Notes: a model not told the origin generated them from the letters alone. Positions 507 through 19,196 are shown, counted from the stretch's first letter. The stretch is DNA of 64,000 nt from Escherichia coli (GCF_003790525.1 NZ_CP033635.1), one strand, 5' to 3'. Made by a program: numbers and translations.

Positions 507-3011
507 ATGTCACAAACTATCGACCTGACCCTGGACGGCCTGTCCTGCGGTCACTGCGTTAAACGCGTGAAAGAAAGTCTCGAACAGCGCCCGGATGTTG
601 AGCAGGCGGATGTGTCTGTCACTGAAGCGCACGTTACCGGGACTGCCAGTGCAGAACAGCTGATCGAAACCATCAAACAAGCGGGTTATGACGCATCTGT
701 AAGCCACCCAAAGGCTAAACCGCTGGCGGAGTCATCAATCCCGTCGGAAGCACTGACAGCGGTTTCTGAGGCGCTTCCGGCAGCGACCGCCGATGACGAT
801 GACAGCCAGCAGTTGCTGCTGAGCGGCATGAGCTGCGCCAGCTGTGTCACCCGCGTACAAAATGCGCTGCAAAGCGTACCGGGCGTCACTCAGGCACGGG
901 TAAACCTGGCGGAGCGTACTGCGCTGGTGATGGGCAGTGCCTCCCCACAAGATTTAGTGCAGGCGGTGGAAAAAGCGGGCTACGGTGCGGAAGCGATTGA
1001 AGATGACGCGAAACGCCGTGAGCGCCAGCAAGAAACCGCCGTCGCTACGATGAAGCGCTTCCGCTGGCAGGCGATTGTCGCACTGGCGGTGGGTATCCCG
1101 GTGATGGTCTGGGGGATGATCGGCGATAACATGATGGTCACCGCCGACAACCGCAGCCTGTGGTTGGTTATCGGCCTGATAACCCTGGCGGTAATGTTTT
1201 TCGCCGGCGGGCATTTTTACCGCAGCGCATGGAAAAGCCTGCTGAACGGTGCAGCGACGATGGATACGCTGGTGGCGCTGGGTACTGGCGTGGCGTGGCT
1301 CTATTCGATGAGCGTCAACCTGTGGCCGCAGTGGTTCCCGATGGAAGCGCGACATCTTTACTATGAAGCCAGTGCGATGATTATCGGTCTGATCAATCTC
1401 GGCCATATGCTGGAAGCGCGCGCACGTCAGCGTTCTTCTAAGGCGCTGGAGAAATTACTCGATTTAACCCCACCGACGGCGCGCCTGGTCACCGACGAAG
1501 GTGAAAAAAACGTGCCGCTGGCAGATGTTCAGCCAGGTATGTTACTGCGCCTGACGACCGGCGACCGTGTGCCGGTAGATGGTGAGATTACTCAAGGCGA
1601 AGCGTGGCTGGATGAAGCGATGCTGACGGGCGAACCTATCCCGCAGCAAAAAGGCGAAGGCGATAGCGTCCATGCCGGGACAGTGGTACAGGACGGCAGT
1701 GTGCTGTTTCGTGCCAGTGCGGTCGGCAGCCATACTACGCTGTCACGGATCATTCGCATGGTGCGCCAGGCCCAGAGCAGCAAGCCTGAAATCGGCCAAC
1801 TGGCGGATAAAATCTCAGCCGTATTTGTGCCGGTAGTAGTGGTTATTGCGCTTGTCAGTGCGGCAATCTGGTATTTCTTTGGTCCGGCACCGCAGATTGT
1901 CTATACCCTGGTGATTGCCACCACGGTGCTGATTATTGCCTGTCCGTGTGCGCTGGGACTGGCGACGCCGATGTCGATTATTTCGGGCGTCGGGCGGGCG
2001 GCTGAGTTTGGCGTGCTGGTACGGGACGCCGACGCGCTGCAACGCGCCAGTACGCTCGATACCGTAGTGTTCGATAAAACCGGGACGCTGACCGAAGGTA
2101 AACCGCAGGTTGTCGCAGTGAAAACGTTTGCTGATGTTGATGAAGCGCAGGCATTGCGTCTGGCGGCGGCACTGGAGCAAGGTTCCAGCCATCCGCTGGC
2201 ACGAGCGATCCTCGATAAAGCAGGCGATATGCAGCTGCCGCAGGTCAACGGTTTCCGCACATTGCGCGGGCTGGGCGTGAGCGGTGAAGCTGAAGGTCAT
2301 GCGTTATTGCTGGGCAATCAGGCGCTGTTAAATGAGCAACAGGTTGATACCAAAGCTATCGAAGCGGAGATTACTGCTCAGGCATCGCAAGGGGCAACGC
2401 CTGTGCTGCTGGCGGTTGACGGGAAAGCGGTAGCCCTGCTGGCTGTACGCGATCCATTGCGTAGTGATAGCGTGGCGGCGCTGCAACGCCTGCATAAAGC
2501 GGGATATCGTCTGGTGATGTTGACCGGGGATAACCCAACCACCGCCAATGCGATCGCCAAAGAAGCCGGGATTGATGAGGTGATCGCCGGGGTGCTGCCG
2601 GACGGTAAAGCCGAAGCGATTAAACGCCTGCAAAGTGAAGGACGTCAGGTGGCAATGGTGGGCGACGGCATTAACGACGCGCCAGCGCTGGCTCAGGCGG
2701 ATGTCGGTATTGCGATGGGTGGCGGCAGTGATGTTGCCATTGAAACCGCGGCGATTACCCTGATGCGCCATAGCCTGATGGGTGTTGCGGATGCGCTCGC
2801 GATTTCCCGCGCAACGCTGCGCAATATGAAGCAGAACCTGCTCGGTGCGTTTATCTACAACAGCATTGGTATTCCGGTCGCCGCCGGTATTTTGTGGCCG
2901 TTCACCGGTACGCTGCTTAACCCGGTGGTTGCCGGAGCGGCAATGGCGCTCTCGTCGATTACCGTAGTGAGTAACGCCAACCGGTTGCTGCGGTTTAAAC
3001 CGAAGGAATAA
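507..3011 (+). CDS. copA: Cu(I)-translocating P1B-type ATPase CopA (834 aa)
   Basis: ORF track 834 aa; two N-terminal heavy-metal-binding motifs ([16 protein letters not shown]), membrane CPC motif, DKTGT phosphorylation site, GDGINDAP hinge; AAAGGAG SD upstream. Confidence 0.97.
707..718 (+). other. copA: Programmed -1 ribosomal frameshift site inside copA (slippery heptamer C CCA AAG, then GGC TAA in the -1 frame), giving the 70-aa CopA(Z) metallochaperone
   Basis: Heptamer at 707-713 is in the X XXY YYZ register for the copA frame (codons 68-69 Pro-Lys); the -1 frame stops two codons later at 716-718, directly after the first HMA domain. Confidence 0.6.
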
Positions 3012-3059
3012 GTATGTCATTGCGGATGCGCTGCTTTAGGGTGGCGCATCTGGCATCGA

Positions 3060-9962: not shown

Positions 9963-11267
9963 TTAACGATCCCAGTAAGACTCTTCCAGGCTGTCTTCAC
10001 GCTCCGGCAAGCCGCGCGTTAAACGAGGTGAATGCTGGTTCAGTACCTGATAGCTCACACGGTTAGCATATTTACACACCTGCGCTAACGATGAATAAGT
10101 TAACCAGGTGAATTTATGTTTGCTGGAGTTTGGTACGTTGCTACGGTGGTAGCTGTTGGCGGTAATGTCATGCAGCAACGCTGCCAGTGCGCCATCTCCT
10201 GCTCCGTTGGTATTCATGATTTTTTCCGGCCCGCCCATGTACGGCGCAATGTGCGAATAGACACGCAGCGGATTCTGGCAATCCTTGTGGCGCATGGCGC
10301 GGCTAAACTCATACTGGTTAAATTCCGCTATAGCACCCGGCAGCAGCGGATGCTGGGTTTTACGTTTCGCTTCGTCTTCGGTAAAGCCCGCCATATACAA
10401 GCCGATTGGCCCGGCGGTGCACAGCACCAGATCAACCCAGTCCAGCGCCTTGTCAGATGCCAACAACGGATCGCTTTCTCCGGTCAACGCTTCGGCTTCA
10501 TCTTCGTTCATCGCAAGGATAGAGACGTGGTCTTTGAGGAATTGCTGCCACCACTGCGGATTCTCGGCAATGACAAACTTGGTGCCCAGCGTCAGCACCA
10601 CCGGTACGTTATATTTCTTCGCGTACTCAATGGCTTTCATAGTTGCTTCCGGCATGGGTTCACCCGGCTTGCAACGCACCAGATAAGAGGTGAGAACCAG
10701 AGCCGAGGCTCCGGCAATCACATCTTCCGGAATACTTTCAGCCCGCAGCTGGTTCATGTGGCCGGGGCTGATAGCAAAGGTACGTTCCCCGGACTCGCCA
10801 ATCAGCGTAAAGCAACGACCAATCGGGCCATCCACGCCTTGTAGATAGTTAAGATCGGTACGGCTGGAGGTATTACACAGGTAACGATAGGCATAGCTGC
10901 CAATTTCAATATTGCTGCACATCACACCCAGCAGCACCGAACGGTCGTCCGCGAGCACCGAGTAGTTGTGCATGGTGTTGCCAATGGTGCCACCCGCAAA
11001 CTGATGGGTAATCAGGTTTTTCTGTTTTAGTTCCTGATAAAGCGCTTCGGCTACGTCATCCTCAATCACCAGTGAATGCCCGGCGCTTAATCCATAACGC
11101 TCAATGAATTCATCATCCACTTTCGCTTCAATATCGACCAGCGTTTGATCGATACCCACTACCCAGGCAGCGCTGGTTTCGTTTTCTGGCTGGAATTGCT
11201 GAAGCAGCGGATCGCGTGCATTTACGGGGAAGTAATGTTTGGATTTACGTTTACCGGGAAATTTCAT
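9963..11267 (-). CDS. gsk: Inosine-guanosine kinase Gsk (434 aa)
   Basis: ORF track 434 aa; PfkB-family sugar/nucleoside kinase sequence recognised. Confidence 0.93.
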   Translation of the reverse strand: MKFPGKRKSKHYFPVNARDPLLQQFQPENETSAAWVVGIDQTLVDIEAKVDDEFIERYGLSAGHSLVIEDDVAEALYQELKQKNLITHQFAGGTIGNTMHNYSVLADDRSVLLGVMCSNIEIGSYAYRYLCNTSSRTDLNYLQGVDGPIGRCFTLIGESGERTFAISPGHMNQLRAESIPEDVIAGASALVLTSYLVRCKPGEPMPEATMKAIEYAKKYNVPVVLTLGTKFVIAENPQWWQQFLKDHVSILAMNEDEAEALTGESDPLLASDKALDWVDLVLCTAGPIGLYMAGFTEDEAKRKTQHPLLPGAIAEFNQYEFSRAMRHKDCQNPLRVYSHIAPYMGGPEKIMNTNGAGDGALAALLHDITANSYHRSNVPNSSKHKFTWLTYSSLAQVCKYANRVSYQVLNQHSPRLTRGLPEREDSLEESYWDR

Positions 11268-11418
11268 GGTTGTTTTTACGGGTGGTTAACTGAGCGGCGA
11301 ATGTTAACACAATCTGACGGGAGCGCGCGAGATGCAGCCAGTTTCAATATCAGCAGGCGGGATCGCATTTTCATGGCAGTGGTTCCTTACAATGACGTAA
11401 TTTGAAAGGAGTTTTTGC

Positions 11419-12378
11419 ATGAAGCCGGAAAACAAATTACCCGTTCTGGACCTTATTTCTGCTGAAATGAAGACCGTTGTGAATACTCTTCAGCCGGATT
11501 TACCGCCCTGGCCCGCAACGGGAACGATTGCTGAGCAACGACAGTATTACACGCTTGAGCGCCGATTCTGGAATGCGGGCGCTCCAGAAATGGCAACCAG
11601 AGCTTACATGGTTCCAACAAAATATGGGCAGGTGGAAACACGTCTCTTTTGTCCGCAGCCAGATAGTCCGGCGACGCTATTTTATTTGCATGGCGGCGGT
11701 TTTATTCTCGGCAATCTCGATACCCACGATCGCATCATGCGCCTGCTGGCAAGCTACAGCCAATGTACGGTGATTGGCATTGATTACACCCTTTCACCTG
11801 AAGCGCGTTTTCCGCAAGCGATAGAGGAAATTGTGGCTGCCTGTTGTTATTTCCACCAGCAGGCGGAGGATTATCAAATCAATATGTCCCGCATTGGCTT
11901 TGCCGGTGATTCCGCAGGTGCCATGCTGGCGCTCGCCAGTGCGTTGTGGTTGCGTGATAAACAGATCGATTGCGGTAAAGTTGCGGGCGTTTTGCTGTGG
12001 TATGGGCTTTACGGATTACGGGATTCCGTGACTCGTCGTCTGTTGGGCGGTGTCTGGGATGGCTTAACGCAACAGGATTTACAGATGTATGAAGAGGCGT
12101 ATTTAAGCAACGACGCGGACCGCGAGTCGCCGTATTACTGCCTGTTTAATAATGATCTCACTCGCGAAGTCCCGCCCTGTTTTATTGCCGGGGCGGAGTT
12201 CGATCCGCTGCTGGATGACAGCCGTCTGCTTTACCAGACGTTAGCGGCGCATCAGCAGCCCTGCGAGTTCAAACTCTACCCAGGCACGCTGCACGCCTTT
12301 TTGCATTATTCACGGATGATGAAAACCGCCGACGAGGCTCTTCGCGACGGCGCTCAGTTCTTTACCGCTCAGCTTTAG
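11419..12378 (+). CDS. aes: Acetyl esterase Aes (319 aa), alpha/beta hydrolase
   Basis: ORF track 319 aa; HGGGF oxyanion motif and GDSAG nucleophile motif. Confidence 0.93.
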
Positions 12379-13337
12379 CGATACGCGGCAACAAGATTAG
12401 CCATCATTTCGATATGTTCTGGCGTGGCATTAAGCGCCGGAATATATTCATATTTTTTCCCGCCCGCACCGAGGAAGACCTCACGGTTTTGCTCGGCAAT
12501 CTCTTCCAGCGTCTCCAGACAATCCGCAGCAAAGCCCGGGCACATCACCTGAATATGACCTACGCCTTTTTCTCCGAGCATTTTCAGCGTTTCGTCGGTA
12601 TAAGGCATCAGCCAGGGTTCCCGCCCAAAGCGCGACTGAAAGGTCATCATCACTTTTTCCGGTGCCATCTCCAGTGCGGAAGCCAGTTCGCGAGTCGTTG
12701 TGCGGCAATGTTGCGGATAATCATCGCCTTCATCTGCATAACGCTGGGGAATGCCATGATAAGAGAGCAACAGCAGATCCGGTTCGCCATGTTTGGCAAA
12801 AGAAGCGCGTACGCTGTTCGCCAGTGCATTAATATAATCGTGGTTATCGGCGTAATCACGAATAAACGATATCCCCGGAATGCTACGTTTGCGCGCCAGA
12901 ATTCGCGCCAGTTCATCCCATACCGCACCGACAGTTGAACAGGAGTATTGCGGATAAAGCGGCAGCACCACAATATGATCTACATGCTCTGCCAGAAGTT
13001 CATCTACGGCGCTTTCCAGTGATGGCGAGCCGTAGCTCATTCCCAGCGCTACGGGCGTCTCCGGTAAACGTTGTGCCAGCGCCTGCTGTTGCTGGCGGCT
13101 GTAAACCATCAGCGGCGAGCCACCTTCCATCCAGACAGAGGCATACAGCTTCGCCACACGCGGCGAGCGCAGCGGCAAAATCACGCCGCGCAGCAACGGC
13201 CACCATAACAACCGTGAGGTATCAACCACGCGTCTGTCGCTTAAAAATTGTTTCAGATAGCGTTTTACCGCTTCAGGTGTGGGGGCATCGGGCGTACCCA
13301 GGTTTGCCAGCAGGATACCGGTTTTAGTCTGACGCAT
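12375..13337 (-). CDS. hemH: Ferrochelatase HemH (320 aa)
   Basis: ORF track 320 aa; ferrochelatase sequence recognised; 3' end overlaps the aes stop by 4 bp (convergent). Confidence 0.95.
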
Positions 13338-13468
13338 TACCGCCTCTTATCGATTCAACTTGTTGATAATTGTAGCGGAAAAGTGAAGAAGAAGAACTAA
13401 TTGCTGTGAGAGGTATTGCCTGAGGAGGATGAGCAGACCTGCCCGAAAGCAGATCTGCTGCGGCTTGA

Positions 13469-14185
<717 letters not shown>

Positions 14186-14249
14186 TCAAGAAAGGCACCT
14201 GGGGCTGAAACGGTTAATGGCGAGATAATTTGCGGAAAGTGCAGATGAT

Positions 14250-14288
14250 GAAAAGAAAAATGCCGGATGACACAAAGGTCATCCGGCA
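14250..14288 (-). terminator. Intrinsic terminator of htpG
   Basis: 11-bp stem TGCCGGATGAC/GTCATCCGGCA 6 nt after the htpG stop, followed on the transcribed strand by a T-rich run (TTTTTCTTTT). Confidence 0.65.
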
Positions 14289-14293
14289 TGACA

Positions 14294-16168
14294 TCAGGAA
14301 ACCAGCAGCTGGTTCATACGACGAATAAACAGGTTCGGATCTTCCAGCGTGCCGCGTTCTGCCAGCAGCGCCTGATCCAGCAGCAGTTCTACCCACTCGC
14401 TGAACTTGGCTTCATCTTCAGTATCTGCCGCACGTTTCACCAGTACGTGATCCGGGTTCAGTTCGAAGATGTATTTCACTTCCGGCACTTTCTGGCCCGC
14501 TGCGGCAAACAGTTTCGCTATCTGGGTGCTCATTTCGTCCGCGTCGGTAGAGACAATCGCTGGCGTATCGGTCAGACGGTGAGTCAGACGGACATCTTTC
14601 ACGCGCTCGCCGAGCAGGGCTTTCACACGGTCGATGAACGGAGTCAGTGCTTTCTCCGCTTCTTTCGCGCTCTCATCAACTTCGTCAGCCAGTTTTTCCA
14701 GCGACTCGTCAACTTTAGACACAGACTGGAACGGTTTACCGTCGAACTCAGTCAGATAGTTCATCATCCACTCATCGATGCGGTCGGAAAGCAGCAGAAC
14801 TTCGATGCCTTTCTTACGCAGCAGTTCCAGGTGCGGGCTGCTCTTCGCTGCCGCATAGCTGTCTGCGGTGATGTAGTAGATTTTCTCCTGCCCTTCTTTC
14901 ATGCGGGAAACGTAGTCTTCCAGAGATACGGTCTGCGCAGAAGAATCGGTATGGGTAGAAGCAAAACGCAGCAATTTGGCGATCGCTTCCTGGTTAGCGA
15001 AATCTTCCGCCGGACCTTCTTTCAGTACCAGGCCAAACTGTTGCCAGAAGGTCTGGTATTTTTCCGCGTCGTCTTTCGCCAGTTTTTCCAGCATTTGCAG
15101 CACACGCTTGGTCAGCGCATTGCGCAGGTTACGCGTTACCGTGCTGTCCTGGAGGATTTCACGGGAAACGTTCAGCGGCAGATCGCTGGAGTCAATCAGA
15201 CCACGCACGAAGCGCAGATAGTTCGGCATGAACTGTTCTGCGTCGTCCATGATGAACACACGCTGGACGTACAGTTTCAGTCCGTGTTTATGATCGCGGT
15301 TCCACATATCCCACGGAGCCTGGGACGGAATGTACAGCAGGCTGGTGTACTCCTGCTTACCTTCAACGCGGTTGTGGCTCCAGGTCAGCGGATCGTTAAA
15401 GTCGTGGGCGATGTGTTTGTAGAACTCTTTGTACTCTTCATCGGTGATTTCCGACTTGTTACGAGTCCACAGCGCCTGCGCTTTGTTGATTTTCTCCCAG
15501 GAGATAACGGTTTCGCCGTCTTTCTCTTCGCGTTTTTCGATCTCTACCGGCAGCGCGATATGGTCGGAGTATTTGCTGATGATGGAACGCACGCGCCAGT
15601 CATCGAGGAACTCGTCTTCGCCTTCACGCAGATGCAGGGTGATTTCAGTACCACGATCTTCTTTGGTGATATCGGCAACGGTGTATTCACCTTCGCCAGC
15701 CGATTCCCAGAAGACGCCATTTTCTGGTTTTTCGCCTGCCGCGCGAGTACGCACGGTCACTTTGTCGGCCACGATAAACGCAGAGTAGAAACCAACACCA
15801 AACTGACCGATCAGCTGGCTGTCTTTCGCCTGGTCAGAACCCAGGGATTCGAGGAATGATTTGGTGCCGGATTTAGCGATAGTCCCCAGATGGTCAATCA
15901 CTTCGTCGCGGGTCATCCCCACGCCGTTATCGGAGATGGTCAGCGTGCGCTTGTCTTTATCGAAAGAGACACGAACGCGCAGTTCGCCATCACCTTCGTA
16001 CAGGTCCGGGTTAGAGAGCGCGCGGAAACGCAGCTTGTCCGCCGCATCGGAGGCGTTAGAGATAAGCTCACGCAGGAAGATTTCTTTATTGGAATAGAGA
16101 GAATGGATCATCAGGTGCAGAAGCTGTTTCACTTCTGACTGAAAACCACGAGTTTCTTGTCCTTTCAT
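14294..16168 (-). CDS. htpG: Chaperone HtpG (Hsp90), 624 aa
   Basis: ORF track 624 aa; GHKL ATPase N-domain sequence recognised. Confidence 0.97.
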
Positions 16169-17264: not shown

Positions 17265-19196
17265 TCAAATGGGGCGGATACTTTCTTCATCCAGCTCCGC
17301 ATCGAAGAATCGACGCAGGGTCTGAATATTATTATCCGCAATAATGGACTCGCGCGCCTGCGCAAGTTTTTCTTCGTATATCGCCTGACGCCATTCCAGC
17401 GGCGTACGCACCGCGGGATTATCATCTTCAACGATAGTCAGTTCAACCGTTGAACCTTTTAACGTGCTCAACGCTTCAGCCAGTTTTTGCTGTGCGCCGC
17501 GGTTGTTCAAATGCCGCTGAGAGGAGCGCAAATGCAGACATACTGCGTTGTCGCTCTCCTCTTTCCAGGCATTTAACGCCACCTGTTCGACCAGTTTTGG
17601 TAGCGAAAGTTGACTCACCTGAGCCGCCCACGGGTCGCGCTCAATGGCTTCTGCCGCCAGCTTCGCCGCCAGTTCCGGCGTTTTTTCATGTTCCAGCGCT
17701 TTTTTCAGCGCCTTCGGCGTGGCGACCACTTCTTTTTGCTGCATCACTGGAGTGGTCGCCTTCCAGCGATACGCTTCTTTTTTGGCTGGCGCTTTTTCCA
17801 GCGCCGATGGCACCGGGCGCGCCTGAACGCGATCGGTGACCGAAGCCAGTCTTTCCAGCGCAGCGTTATTCACCGGCCGCGCGCGGGTAGCGGCTGCCGG
17901 TTCACTCTTTTTTGCTTTGGTTGCTCCCTGCACGCGCTGCAACTGCTGGCGCGCCGCCAGCACCTGGCTGGTGGTTTCCGGGAGCGGTACAGTCGGTGCC
18001 TGCTGCGGCGCTGATTGCGGTTGCGGCGGCACCTGGGTTGGCGTCATTACTGCCGTTGGCGCAACGGGCGCAAAGGACTGGCGTGGCACTTCTGGCTCAG
18101 GCAGAGGCATACGCGGATGGAACGCCAGCGCGCGCAGCAGCGTCATCTCAACGCCCATGCGGCGGTCCGGCGCATACGGTAATTCTTTGCGACCAATCAA
18201 CAGCGTTTGATAGTAAAGCTGAATATCCGTCGGCGGTATGGTACGCGCCAGTTCACGCATCCGCAGCTCGATGGCGGCCATGTCGTTGCCAAGTGCAGCA
18301 GGCGAAAGTTGTACCATCGCAATACGATGCAACAAACCGAGCATTTCCACCAGCAACGCTTCCCACTCGATACCACGGGCAGCAGCTTCATTAATTAGCG
18401 CCATTACGCGCTCGCCGTTGGCCTCGACCATCGCTTCAACCAGCGACAACGCCTGATCGTCGTCAAGCGTACCCAGCATCGCACTGACGGCCTGGGTTGA
18501 AACCTGGCCGTCACCGCTGGCAATCGCCTGGTCGGTCAGACTTAAGGCATCTCGCAAGCTGCCTTCAGCGGCGCGCGCCAGTAATTGCAACGCCCGCGGC
18601 TCGTGAGCGATATGTTCTTCGTTGAGGATGTGCTCAAGCTGATGGCGAATTTGCTCGACATCCAGCGCCTTGAGATGGAATTGCAGACAGCGCGACAAAA
18701 TCGTCACCGGCAATTTCTGCGGATCGGTCGTCGCCAGCAGAAACTTAACGTGCTCCGGCGGCTCTTCAAGGGTTTTTAACAGTGCGTTAAAGCTGTGGCG
18801 CGACAGCATATGCACTTCGTCGATGAGATAAACTTTGAAACGACCACGCGCCGGAGCGTACTGGACGTTATCCAGCAGGTCGCGAGTGTCTTCAACTTTA
18901 GTACGCGAGGCGGCGTCGATTTCAATCAGATCGACAAAGCGCCCCTGCTCGATTTCACGACAGTTATCGCACACGCCGCACGGCGTCGCGGTAATGCCGG
19001 TTTCGCAGTTTAGCCCCTTCGCCAGCAGTCGGGCGATAGAGGTTTTTCCGACGCCACGGGTACCGGAAAAAAGATAAGCATGATGAATACGCCCTAACGA
19101 CAAGCCGTTCGCCAGTGCGGTCAGCACATGTTCCTGGCCGACGACGTCAGCAAAGGTTTGTGGGCGCCATTTTCGGGCTAAGACCTGATAACTCAT
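17265..19196 (-). CDS. dnaX: DNA polymerase III subunits tau (full length, 643 aa) and gamma (via frameshift)
   Basis: ORF track 643 aa; AAA+ Walker A GTRGVGKT; contains the known frameshift heptamer. Confidence 0.97.
   Translation of the reverse strand: MSYQVLARKWRPQTFADVVGQEHVLTALANGLSLGRIHHAYLFSGTRGVGKTSIARLLAKGLNCETGITATPCGVCDNCREIEQGRFVDLIEIDAASRTKVEDTRDLLDNVQYAPARGRFKVYLIDEVHMLSRHSFNALLKTLEEPPEHVKFLLATTDPQKLPVTILSRCLQFHLKALDVEQIRHQLEHILNEEHIAHEPRALQLLARAAEGSLRDALSLTDQAIASGDGQVSTQAVSAMLGTLDDDQALSLVEAMVEANGERVMALINEAAARGIEWEALLVEMLGLLHRIAMVQLSPAALGNDMAAIELRMRELARTIPPTDIQLYYQTLLIGRKELPYAPDRRMGVEMTLLRALAFHPRMPLPEPEVPRQSFAPVAPTAVMTPTQVPPQPQSAPQQAPTVPLPETTSQVLAARQQLQRVQGATKAKKSEPAAATRARPVNNAALERLASVTDRVQARPVPSALEKAPAKKEAYRWKATTPVMQQKEVVATPKALKKALEHEKTPELAAKLAAEAIERDPWAAQVSQLSLPKLVEQVALNAWKEESDNAVCLHLRSSQRHLNNRGAQQKLAEALSTLKGSTVELTIVEDDNPAVRTPLEWRQAIYEEKLAQARESIIADNNIQTLRRFFDAELDEESIRPI
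17907..17913 (-). other. dnaX: dnaX programmed -1 ribosomal frameshift heptamer (A AAA AAG) producing the gamma subunit
   Basis: Reverse complement of 17907-17913 is AAAAAAG, in register with dnaX codons 428-430 (AKKSEPAA context); GC-rich hairpin-capable sequence follows. Confidence 0.85.

Follow-up and report, generated by a model that had tools for sequence, protein, structure and literature searches.

A genuine but ordinary four-base-pair overlap between the convergent aes and hemH genes of Escherichia coli, with a candidate 3′-end hairpin inside hemH

The aes-hemH junction

The genes aes and hemH, which encode an esterase and the last enzyme of haem synthesis, respectively, are well-known E. 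coli genes located on opposite strands. In the 64,000-nt stretch of E. coli DNA analysed here (GCF_003790525.1, NZ_CP033635.1; hereafter the window, with positions counted from its first nucleotide), aes (acetyl esterase, 319 aa) occupies positions 11419-12378 of the plus strand and ends with the stop codon TAG at 12376-12378, and hemH (ferrochelatase, 320 aa) occupies 12375-13337 of the minus strand and ends with TAA, the reverse complement of 12375-12377. The neighbouring genes gsk (9963-11267), adk (13469-14113) and htpG (14294-16168) are all on the minus strand, and the orientation of the window is the reverse complement of that usual for K-12. Read directly, positions 12370-12380 are CAGCTTTAGCG; the aes frame ends in GCT CAG CTT TAG, and the hemH frame, on the minus strand, ends in TAT CGC TAA. 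With stop codons counted, the two coding sequences (CDSs) share 4 bp at 12375-12378 (TTAG, or CTAA on the other strand), consisting of the third base of aes Leu319, the two bases common to both stop codons (12376-12377), and the third base of hemH Arg320. The sequence and the ORF list thus reproduce exactly the overlap and the stop coordinates of the original prediction, which had been made from the sequence alone.

That prediction also named the circumstance under which the overlap would dissolve, namely a different true stop for either gene, arising for example from a sequencing error. Such an artefact, with one of the genes ending elsewhere, is now barely conceivable. A 130-bp query across the junction found the junction DNA in 5423 of 5426 complete E. 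coli genomes, with both genes annotated, and a sequencing error is therefore excluded; the identical junction sequence occurs, moreover, in independent Escherichia species and in Citrobacter sedlakii. Each protein aligns with its NCBIfam equivalog profile from one end to the other, Aes matching PRK10162 (acetyl esterase) over its full length (631 bits, residues 1-319) and HemH matching TIGR00109 (ferrochelatase) over residues 1-319 of 320 (448 bits), and the crystallised Aes chain (PDB 4KRX/4KRY) has residue 319 as its last. RefSeq annotates the same 4-bp overlap both in E. coli SMS-3-5 (NC_010498.1, 100% identical to the window) and in K-12 MG1655 (hemH 498055-499017, aes 499014-499973). On these grounds, sequencing or annotation error was rejected as the source of the overlap.

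Two further features of the neighbourhood were observed. The adk-hemH spacer measures 131 bp in SMS-3-5 (window 13338-13468) and 235 bp in K-12 (positions 2821-3055 of the K-12 locus, L002), the adk-proximal parts being unrelated. The K-12 spacer contains a GC-rich palindromic repeat-like element together with a hairpin and U-run (AGGCCGGATATTCATTCGGCCTTTT), the SMS-3-5 spacer contains a different hairpin without a U-run, and a published Term-seq 3′ end at K-12 position 497939 falls within the K-12 spacer. A 530-aa ORF antisense to htpG (14267-15859, plus strand), which emerges from the mechanical ORF listing, is a typical shadow ORF.

A recognised class of convergent overlaps

Overlaps of 4 bp form a recognised modal class among convergent gene pairs, and the jump in frequency at this length is caused by four tetramers, namely CTAA, TTAA, CTAG and TTAG (Lillo and Krakauer 2007, PMC2174442). 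Because each such YTAR tetramer provides a stop codon on each strand, and because 4 bp is the modal length, the aes/hemH overlap is not more than would be expected by chance. The junction has the properties of this class, with four shared nucleotides, the tetramer TTAG (TAG when read on one strand, TAA on its complement), stop codons that are both true gene ends, and a terminator position that must fall within the partner CDS; it differs from the class in nothing of substance, and is one of the 58 (PMC2174442) to 75 (Huvet and Stumpf, PMC4161906) convergent overlaps that E. coli has by published counts. In a pair of this kind, the partner's CDS is the only place left for a Rho-independent terminator, and such terminators were predicted for 23 of 116 genes so arranged (PMC2174442); embedding of this sort is both possible and frequent (PMC2174442; PMC12288877). 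Within the window, aes/hemH is the only overlap among eight convergent junctions, the other seven having gaps of 30-211 bp.

The coding cost of the arrangement is small. The genetic code permits T or C at position 12375, which preserves the aes Leu codon and gives a hemH stop of TAA or TAG, and G or A at position 12378, which gives an aes stop of TAG or TAA and preserves the hemH Arg codon. The mutual constraint is thus minimal, comprising two shared wobble positions with two bases allowed at each, and the aes/hemH overlap is a genuine but ordinary, already annotated arrangement.

The junction in related bacteria

The junction was compared across relatives by an Aes search of genome contigs, which gave eight loci, and, for the wider genera, through a protein database and contig look-ups. 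Escherichia, Salmonella, Citrobacter, Pseudocitrobacter, Trabulsiella and Shimwellia all share the gene order ybaL-gsk-aes-hemH-adk-htpG; aes is located elsewhere, away from hemH, in [Enterobacter] lignolyticus and Edwardsiella. Where the two genes are adjacent, the distance between their ends (negative values denoting overlaps, in bp) is -4 with TTAG in E. coli, three other Escherichia lineages and C. sedlakii; -4 with TTAA in Salmonella, where Aes has 323 aa and both proteins have different C-terminal tails; 0 in a Citrobacter metagenome-assembled genome; +1 in Trabulsiella; +2 in C. amalonaticus; -15 in Pseudocitrobacter; -23 in Shimwellia; and -26 in E. marmotae and also in E. coli GmF052, a 13-bp deletion being responsible. 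In GmF052, this deletion shifts the aes frame to give an Aes of 322 aa (ending FFSDRLQQD) and a 26-bp overlap with hemH instead of 4 bp, and the deletion allele is polymorphic within E. coli. The Aes tails are variable (FFTAQL, FFMARIKTPR, FFTQQINALR, FFTRQLR, FFSNRLQPD), the HemH end is steadier, and HemH orthologues keep a length of 320 aa. The comparison indicates that tight packing is conserved with a drifting aes stop and that the exact extent of overlap (+2 to -26 bp) is not, so that the 4-bp overlap itself does not look like an object of selection.

The 13-bp deletion, equivalent to window positions of about 12357-12375, was seen in GmF052 (locus L020, 1190-1230), E. marmotae (L012) and E. 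albertii (L010), and 241 of the 5423 E. coli genomes, in which less than 80% of the 130-bp junction query was covered, may carry the same allele. In E. albertii NBRC 107761 (L010, 2501-3461), aes is frameshifted, with an ORF that stops after 224 aa, and is probably a pseudogene in that strain; hemH is intact. In both genomes in which aes was found apart from hemH, [Enterobacter] lignolyticus (L013, 3688-4080) and Edwardsiella tarda (L014, 1595-2041), it is adjoined by a gene for a CaiF/GrlA-family regulator.

The end of the hemH transcript

Because there is no intergenic DNA, the formation of each transcript 3′ end is displaced into the CDS of the partner gene. The original prediction had proposed that each transcript must enter the other gene, which holds on this ground for both strands and agrees, for the hemH-sense strand, with published bicyclomycin data on Rho. 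It had also stated that neither gene has room for a terminator of its own, and this needs amending: intergenic DNA is indeed lacking, but signals may be embedded in the codons of the partner, for which a candidate in hemH (hairpin 1) is described below.

A Rho termination region has been reported at K-12 position 499332 (plus strand), annotated as ‘antisense aes’, with a Rho score of 4.07 (p = 6e-10) and with upstream/downstream reads of 79/24 in untreated cells and 422/522 with bicyclomycin (Adams et al. 2021, PMC7815308). This coordinate, a coarse one taken from coverage windows of 800 nt, falls some 315 nt beyond the hemH stop, at the equivalent of window position ~12060. A C-rich, G-poor rut-like tract is present here in the hemH-sense RNA, antisense to aes (11920-12125, minus strand; +250 to +455 nt past the hemH stop), with C rising to 0.41 and G falling to 0.13. 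Its C-G excess is maximal in the 78-nt window starting at +313 nt, which ranks at the 99.91st percentile when every window of either strand of the 64 kb is considered, and this composition peak coincides with the published Rho region. An untranslated, C-rich and G-poor RNA segment of ~80 nt, as expected of a rut site, is therefore found at the site of Rho action. Taken with the published Rho data, which establish the Rho dependence, this means that hemH-sense transcription extends across roughly the last third of aes before Rho halts it, with the C-rich tract as the putative rut site.

The same study reported a second Rho region at K-12 position 498060 (plus strand; equivalent to window ~13332), at the very start of hemH, with a Rho score of 4.02 and p of 1e-17 (PMC7815308). 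This region implies that Rho limits read-through from adk into hemH, and, together with the rise in upstream reads upon bicyclomycin treatment, that part of the signal at 499332 is adk read-through.

A second candidate signal on the hemH-sense strand is hairpin 2, a GC-rich, bulged 10-bp stem (12351-12325) followed by UUUCAUCAUC (12315-12351 in all, minus strand), which lies 24-60 nt past the hemH stop and is antisense to aes codons ~300-311. Its fold (-17.4 kcal/mol, z -1.3) is not significant, it is conserved only within Escherichia, and its terminator discriminant d of about -10 is below threshold. The codon alignment gave no synonymous suppression in the corresponding region of aes, and no Term-seq 3′ end mapped under three conditions falls at the hairpin (Adams et al., PMC7815308). 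Hairpin 2 is therefore weak as a conserved hemH terminator, a role for which it was rejected, and is at best a weak intrinsic terminator.

A strand-specific hairpin past the aes stop

On the opposite strand, the aes-sense RNA is predicted to form a 15-bp stem-loop, hairpin 1 (12411-12448, plus strand), which begins 33 nt past the aes stop and covers hemH codons 297-309. It is followed by the U-rich tail CAUAUUUUUU (12449-12458), complementary to hemH codons Gly293-Lys294-Lys295-Tyr296; hairpin and U-run together lie 33-80 nt past the aes stop, across hemH codons 294-309. The minimum free energy of hairpin 1 is -21.1 kcal/mol (z -5.4; none of 200 shuffles folded as stably), compared with -8.3 kcal/mol (z -0.9) on the opposite strand, where the fold is weak because several of the stem pairs are G-U pairs available on the aes-sense strand only. 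The hairpin is within the top 0.36% of 44-nt windows in the 64 kb, passes a permissive terminator-like scan, and is one of eight strong hairpin-plus-U-run sites in the 128 kb of both strands, three others of which are at the 3′ ends of tig, lon and htpG. Immediately downstream of it is a C-rich, G-poor rut-like tract of the aes-sense RNA, antisense to hemH (12431-12630, plus strand; peak 78-nt window 12497-12574), with a C/G ratio of up to 2.15 and a maximal C-G excess of 0.218 (99.69th percentile, both strands).

The scan for hairpins followed by U-runs also returned sites elsewhere in the window. The antisense strand of the annotated dnaX programmed-frameshift element (a hairpin and A-rich slippery site, ~17860-17915, plus strand) gives a strong false-positive ‘terminator’ score. 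Strong sites at ~36529 (minus strand; ~500 nt past amtB, within tesB antisense) and ~21130 (minus strand; ~260 nt past mscK, within rsmS antisense) may be further partner-embedded terminators.

Hairpin 1 is present from Escherichia to Salmonella and Trabulsiella and is lost in Shimwellia despite the kept gene order, and its U-run decays outside Escherichia and Salmonella. Synonymous variability, computed from 15 genomes for 308 windows of 13 codons along hemH (mean 0.400, sd 0.063), reaches its minimum of 0.212 in the window that covers the hairpin; this window ranks 5th of 308 when one genome per genus is used. The stem codons TAT ATT CCG GCG and CCG GAA CAT ATY are nearly invariant, and the loop codons vary freely. 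The stem codons CCG, GCG, GAA, CAT and ATT are also common ones in enterobacteria, so codon bias combined with a conserved peptide (YIPALN..PEHI) could explain part of the synonymous signal. In an alignment of 16 sequences, 95.4% of stem cells are paired, and the stem substitutions are mostly G-U to A-U or U-G to C-G changes, which keep the pair on the aes-sense strand; one E. coli allele (GmF052, strain 131) has a C-A mismatch in the stem. The same 16 sequences contain almost no covariation, with one double change and an observed score reached by 33 of 500 shuffles, and covariation therefore provides no proof of the hairpin.

As an intrinsic terminator, hairpin 1 has the stable stem-loop past the stop codon, and falls short in its U-tract and discriminant score. 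The U-run begins 4 nt past the AU-rich base of the stem, and the discriminant d is about -18 here, -11 in K-12 and -30 for the GmF052 allele, compared with +39 and +46 for the controls htpG and tig and with -8 for lon. Adams et al. 2021 (PMC7815308) give no curated Term-seq 3′ end within K-12 498800-499399 under three conditions and no Rho region covering hemH on the aes-sense strand; low expression of both genes may be the reason for the absent Term-seq ends. The TERMITe supplements mention neither aes nor hemH. A search of Rfam (window 11000-14500, E-value threshold 1) returned no known RNA family at the junction, and a sigma-70 scan of 11000-14400 returned no promoter-like site and therefore no sign of an internal antisense promoter. 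Hairpin 1 is thus a weakly scoring terminator candidate without a mapped 3′ end, and the odds that it forms or protects the aes 3′ end are about even.

Bidirectional intrinsic terminators between convergent genes were reportedly described by Ju et al. in 2019. Such terminators resemble the aes-hemH case in involving two convergent genes and a stem-loop close to their boundary (Wang et al. 2022, bioRxiv 10.1101/2022.10.23.513370), but hairpin 1 folds well on one strand only, has a U-run on one side only, and is located inside hemH rather than between the genes, and a bidirectional terminator was rejected for these reasons. Another comparison is with the steady-state 3′ ends of mRNAs terminated by Rho, in which a stable stem-loop is succeeded at once by a rut site (Dar and Sorek 2018, PMC6061677). 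The hemH transcript resembles Rho-dependent ends in having a bicyclomycin-sensitive region where antisense RNA that is not translated spans an extreme C>G tract (PMC6061677, PMC7815308). The aes transcript is likened to them by its base composition and predicted fold, with a candidate stem-loop directly followed by a C>G tract; its stem-loop differs in being next to a U-run, which is absent from typical Rho-type ends (PMC6061677).

Transcript overlap at the junction

The pair hemH-aes is explicitly listed among the 165 convergent excludons of MG1655, with transcript overlap in at least 50% of 58 RNA-seq samples (ExcludonFinder 2025, PMC12288877). The criterion applied, that of overlapping transcript boundaries, is satisfied almost automatically here because the CDSs themselves overlap. 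Transcript overlap as such is the norm, since an overlap, averaging 286 nt, was found for 276 of 370 convergent E. coli operons, irrespective of whether their CDSs overlap (Conway et al. 2014, PMC4161252). The likeness to convergent excludons is thus one of anatomy, in that the transcript 3′ ends are complementary, an overlap that follows from the CDS overlap; the defining property of excludons is mutually exclusive expression through interference or RNase III (PMC12288877, PMC4161252), and the literature searched contained no data on reciprocal expression or RNase III processing for hemH-aes. Two other overlapping convergent E. coli pairs, dnaQ-rnh and ilvA-ilvY (cited in PMC4161252), have been studied since the 1980s; they share overlapping convergent transcription and termination with hemH-aes and, unlike it, have been dissected experimentally. 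Regulatory interference at hemH/aes is no more than a possibility.

Alternative readings and proposed explanation

Two alternatives bear on how much function should be assigned to the junction. The more serious of them concerns hairpin 1, which might be not an RNA element but an accidental quasi-palindrome, arising from the HemH peptide Y-I-P-A...T-P-E-H-I and preferred codons, with aes transcription ended solely by Rho or by diffuse read-through. This is a real contender, if somewhat the less probable account. It is consistent with the near absence of covariation, the common codons of the stem, the sub-threshold discriminant score, the lack of a Term-seq peak (Adams et al.), and the disappearance of the hairpin from Shimwellia with gene order kept, and the terminator-like score of the dnaX frameshift hairpin antisense illustrates how readily false positives arise within the window. 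It accounts poorly for a synonymous variability that is the lowest of 308 hemH windows while the loop codons are free, for the strand asymmetry of -21.1 versus -8.3 kcal/mol, for the observation that in 14 of 16 sequences every stem substitution keeps the aes-sense pair, and for a position exactly where an aes 3′ end is expected.

At the other extreme, selection might have shaped the overlap for regulation, as a functional convergent excludon; strong transcription of hemH would silence aes, and vice versa, through polymerase collision and/or RNase III cleavage of the duplex. Presence of the pair in the E. coli excludome, conservation of the spacer-less packing in at least six genera, and the published data placing hemH-sense RNA over ~300 nt of aes antisense all speak for this proposal, and collisions between RNA polymerases meeting head-on, at positions set by a stem-loop, are an established mechanism by which transcription ends at convergent pairs (bioRxiv 10.1101/2022.10.23.513370). 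Against it, the excludon listing is trivial for overlapping CDSs, 75% of convergent E. coli operons overlap anyway, the extent of overlap varies (+2 to -26 bp), also among E. coli strains, and aes lies apart from hemH in [Enterobacter] lignolyticus and Edwardsiella. To our knowledge, there is no functional link between haem synthesis and Aes. A selected device of this kind is therefore unlikely, and the same low probability attaches to its stronger form, in which the hairpin at 12411-12448 is a selected dual-coding RNA element and the spacer-less junction is kept as a regulatory excludon, so that strong hemH transcription lowers aes through polymerase collision or duplex cleavage. Peroxide stress is an example of a condition with strong hemH transcription.

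The preferred explanation, to which a probability of roughly three in four is assigned as a whole, is near-neutral drift of stop codons in a packed convergent pair of housekeeping genes, with transcript 3′ ends displaced into the partner, by Rho for hemH and with the help of the hairpin for aes. On this explanation, aes and hemH would have been packed end to end since before the divergence of Escherichia, Salmonella, Citrobacter and Shimwellia, and their overlap, with two wobble positions shared, would be nearly costless. Transcription of hemH would pass the weak hairpin and U-tract of hairpin 2, and the RNA, untranslated past the stop codon, would be terminated by Rho ~300 nt into aes antisense, at the C-rich, G-poor tract. 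Transcription of aes would enter the last ~27 codons of hemH, where hairpin 1, its U-run and the C-rich tract most likely form the aes 3′ end, hairpin 1 presumably serving as an intrinsic terminator of low strength or, if Rho ends the transcript, as the stem-loop that protects it. The aes and hemH mRNAs would then share a complementary stretch of ~80 nt at the minimum and several hundred nt at the most, as is typical of convergent E. coli operons.

Implications

The CDS overlap, the transcript overlap and the Rho dependence of the hemH-sense RNA are all already on record, and the junction presents nothing new in kind. Statistical descriptions of this class of overlap date back to the 2000s. 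The modest addition made here is a strand-specific hairpin in the last codons of hemH, where synonymous change is suppressed. If validated, hairpin 1 would be another example of a terminator or 3′ stabiliser embedded in the CDS of a convergent partner, and would call for caution when the 3′ end of hemH or aes is recoded or deleted.
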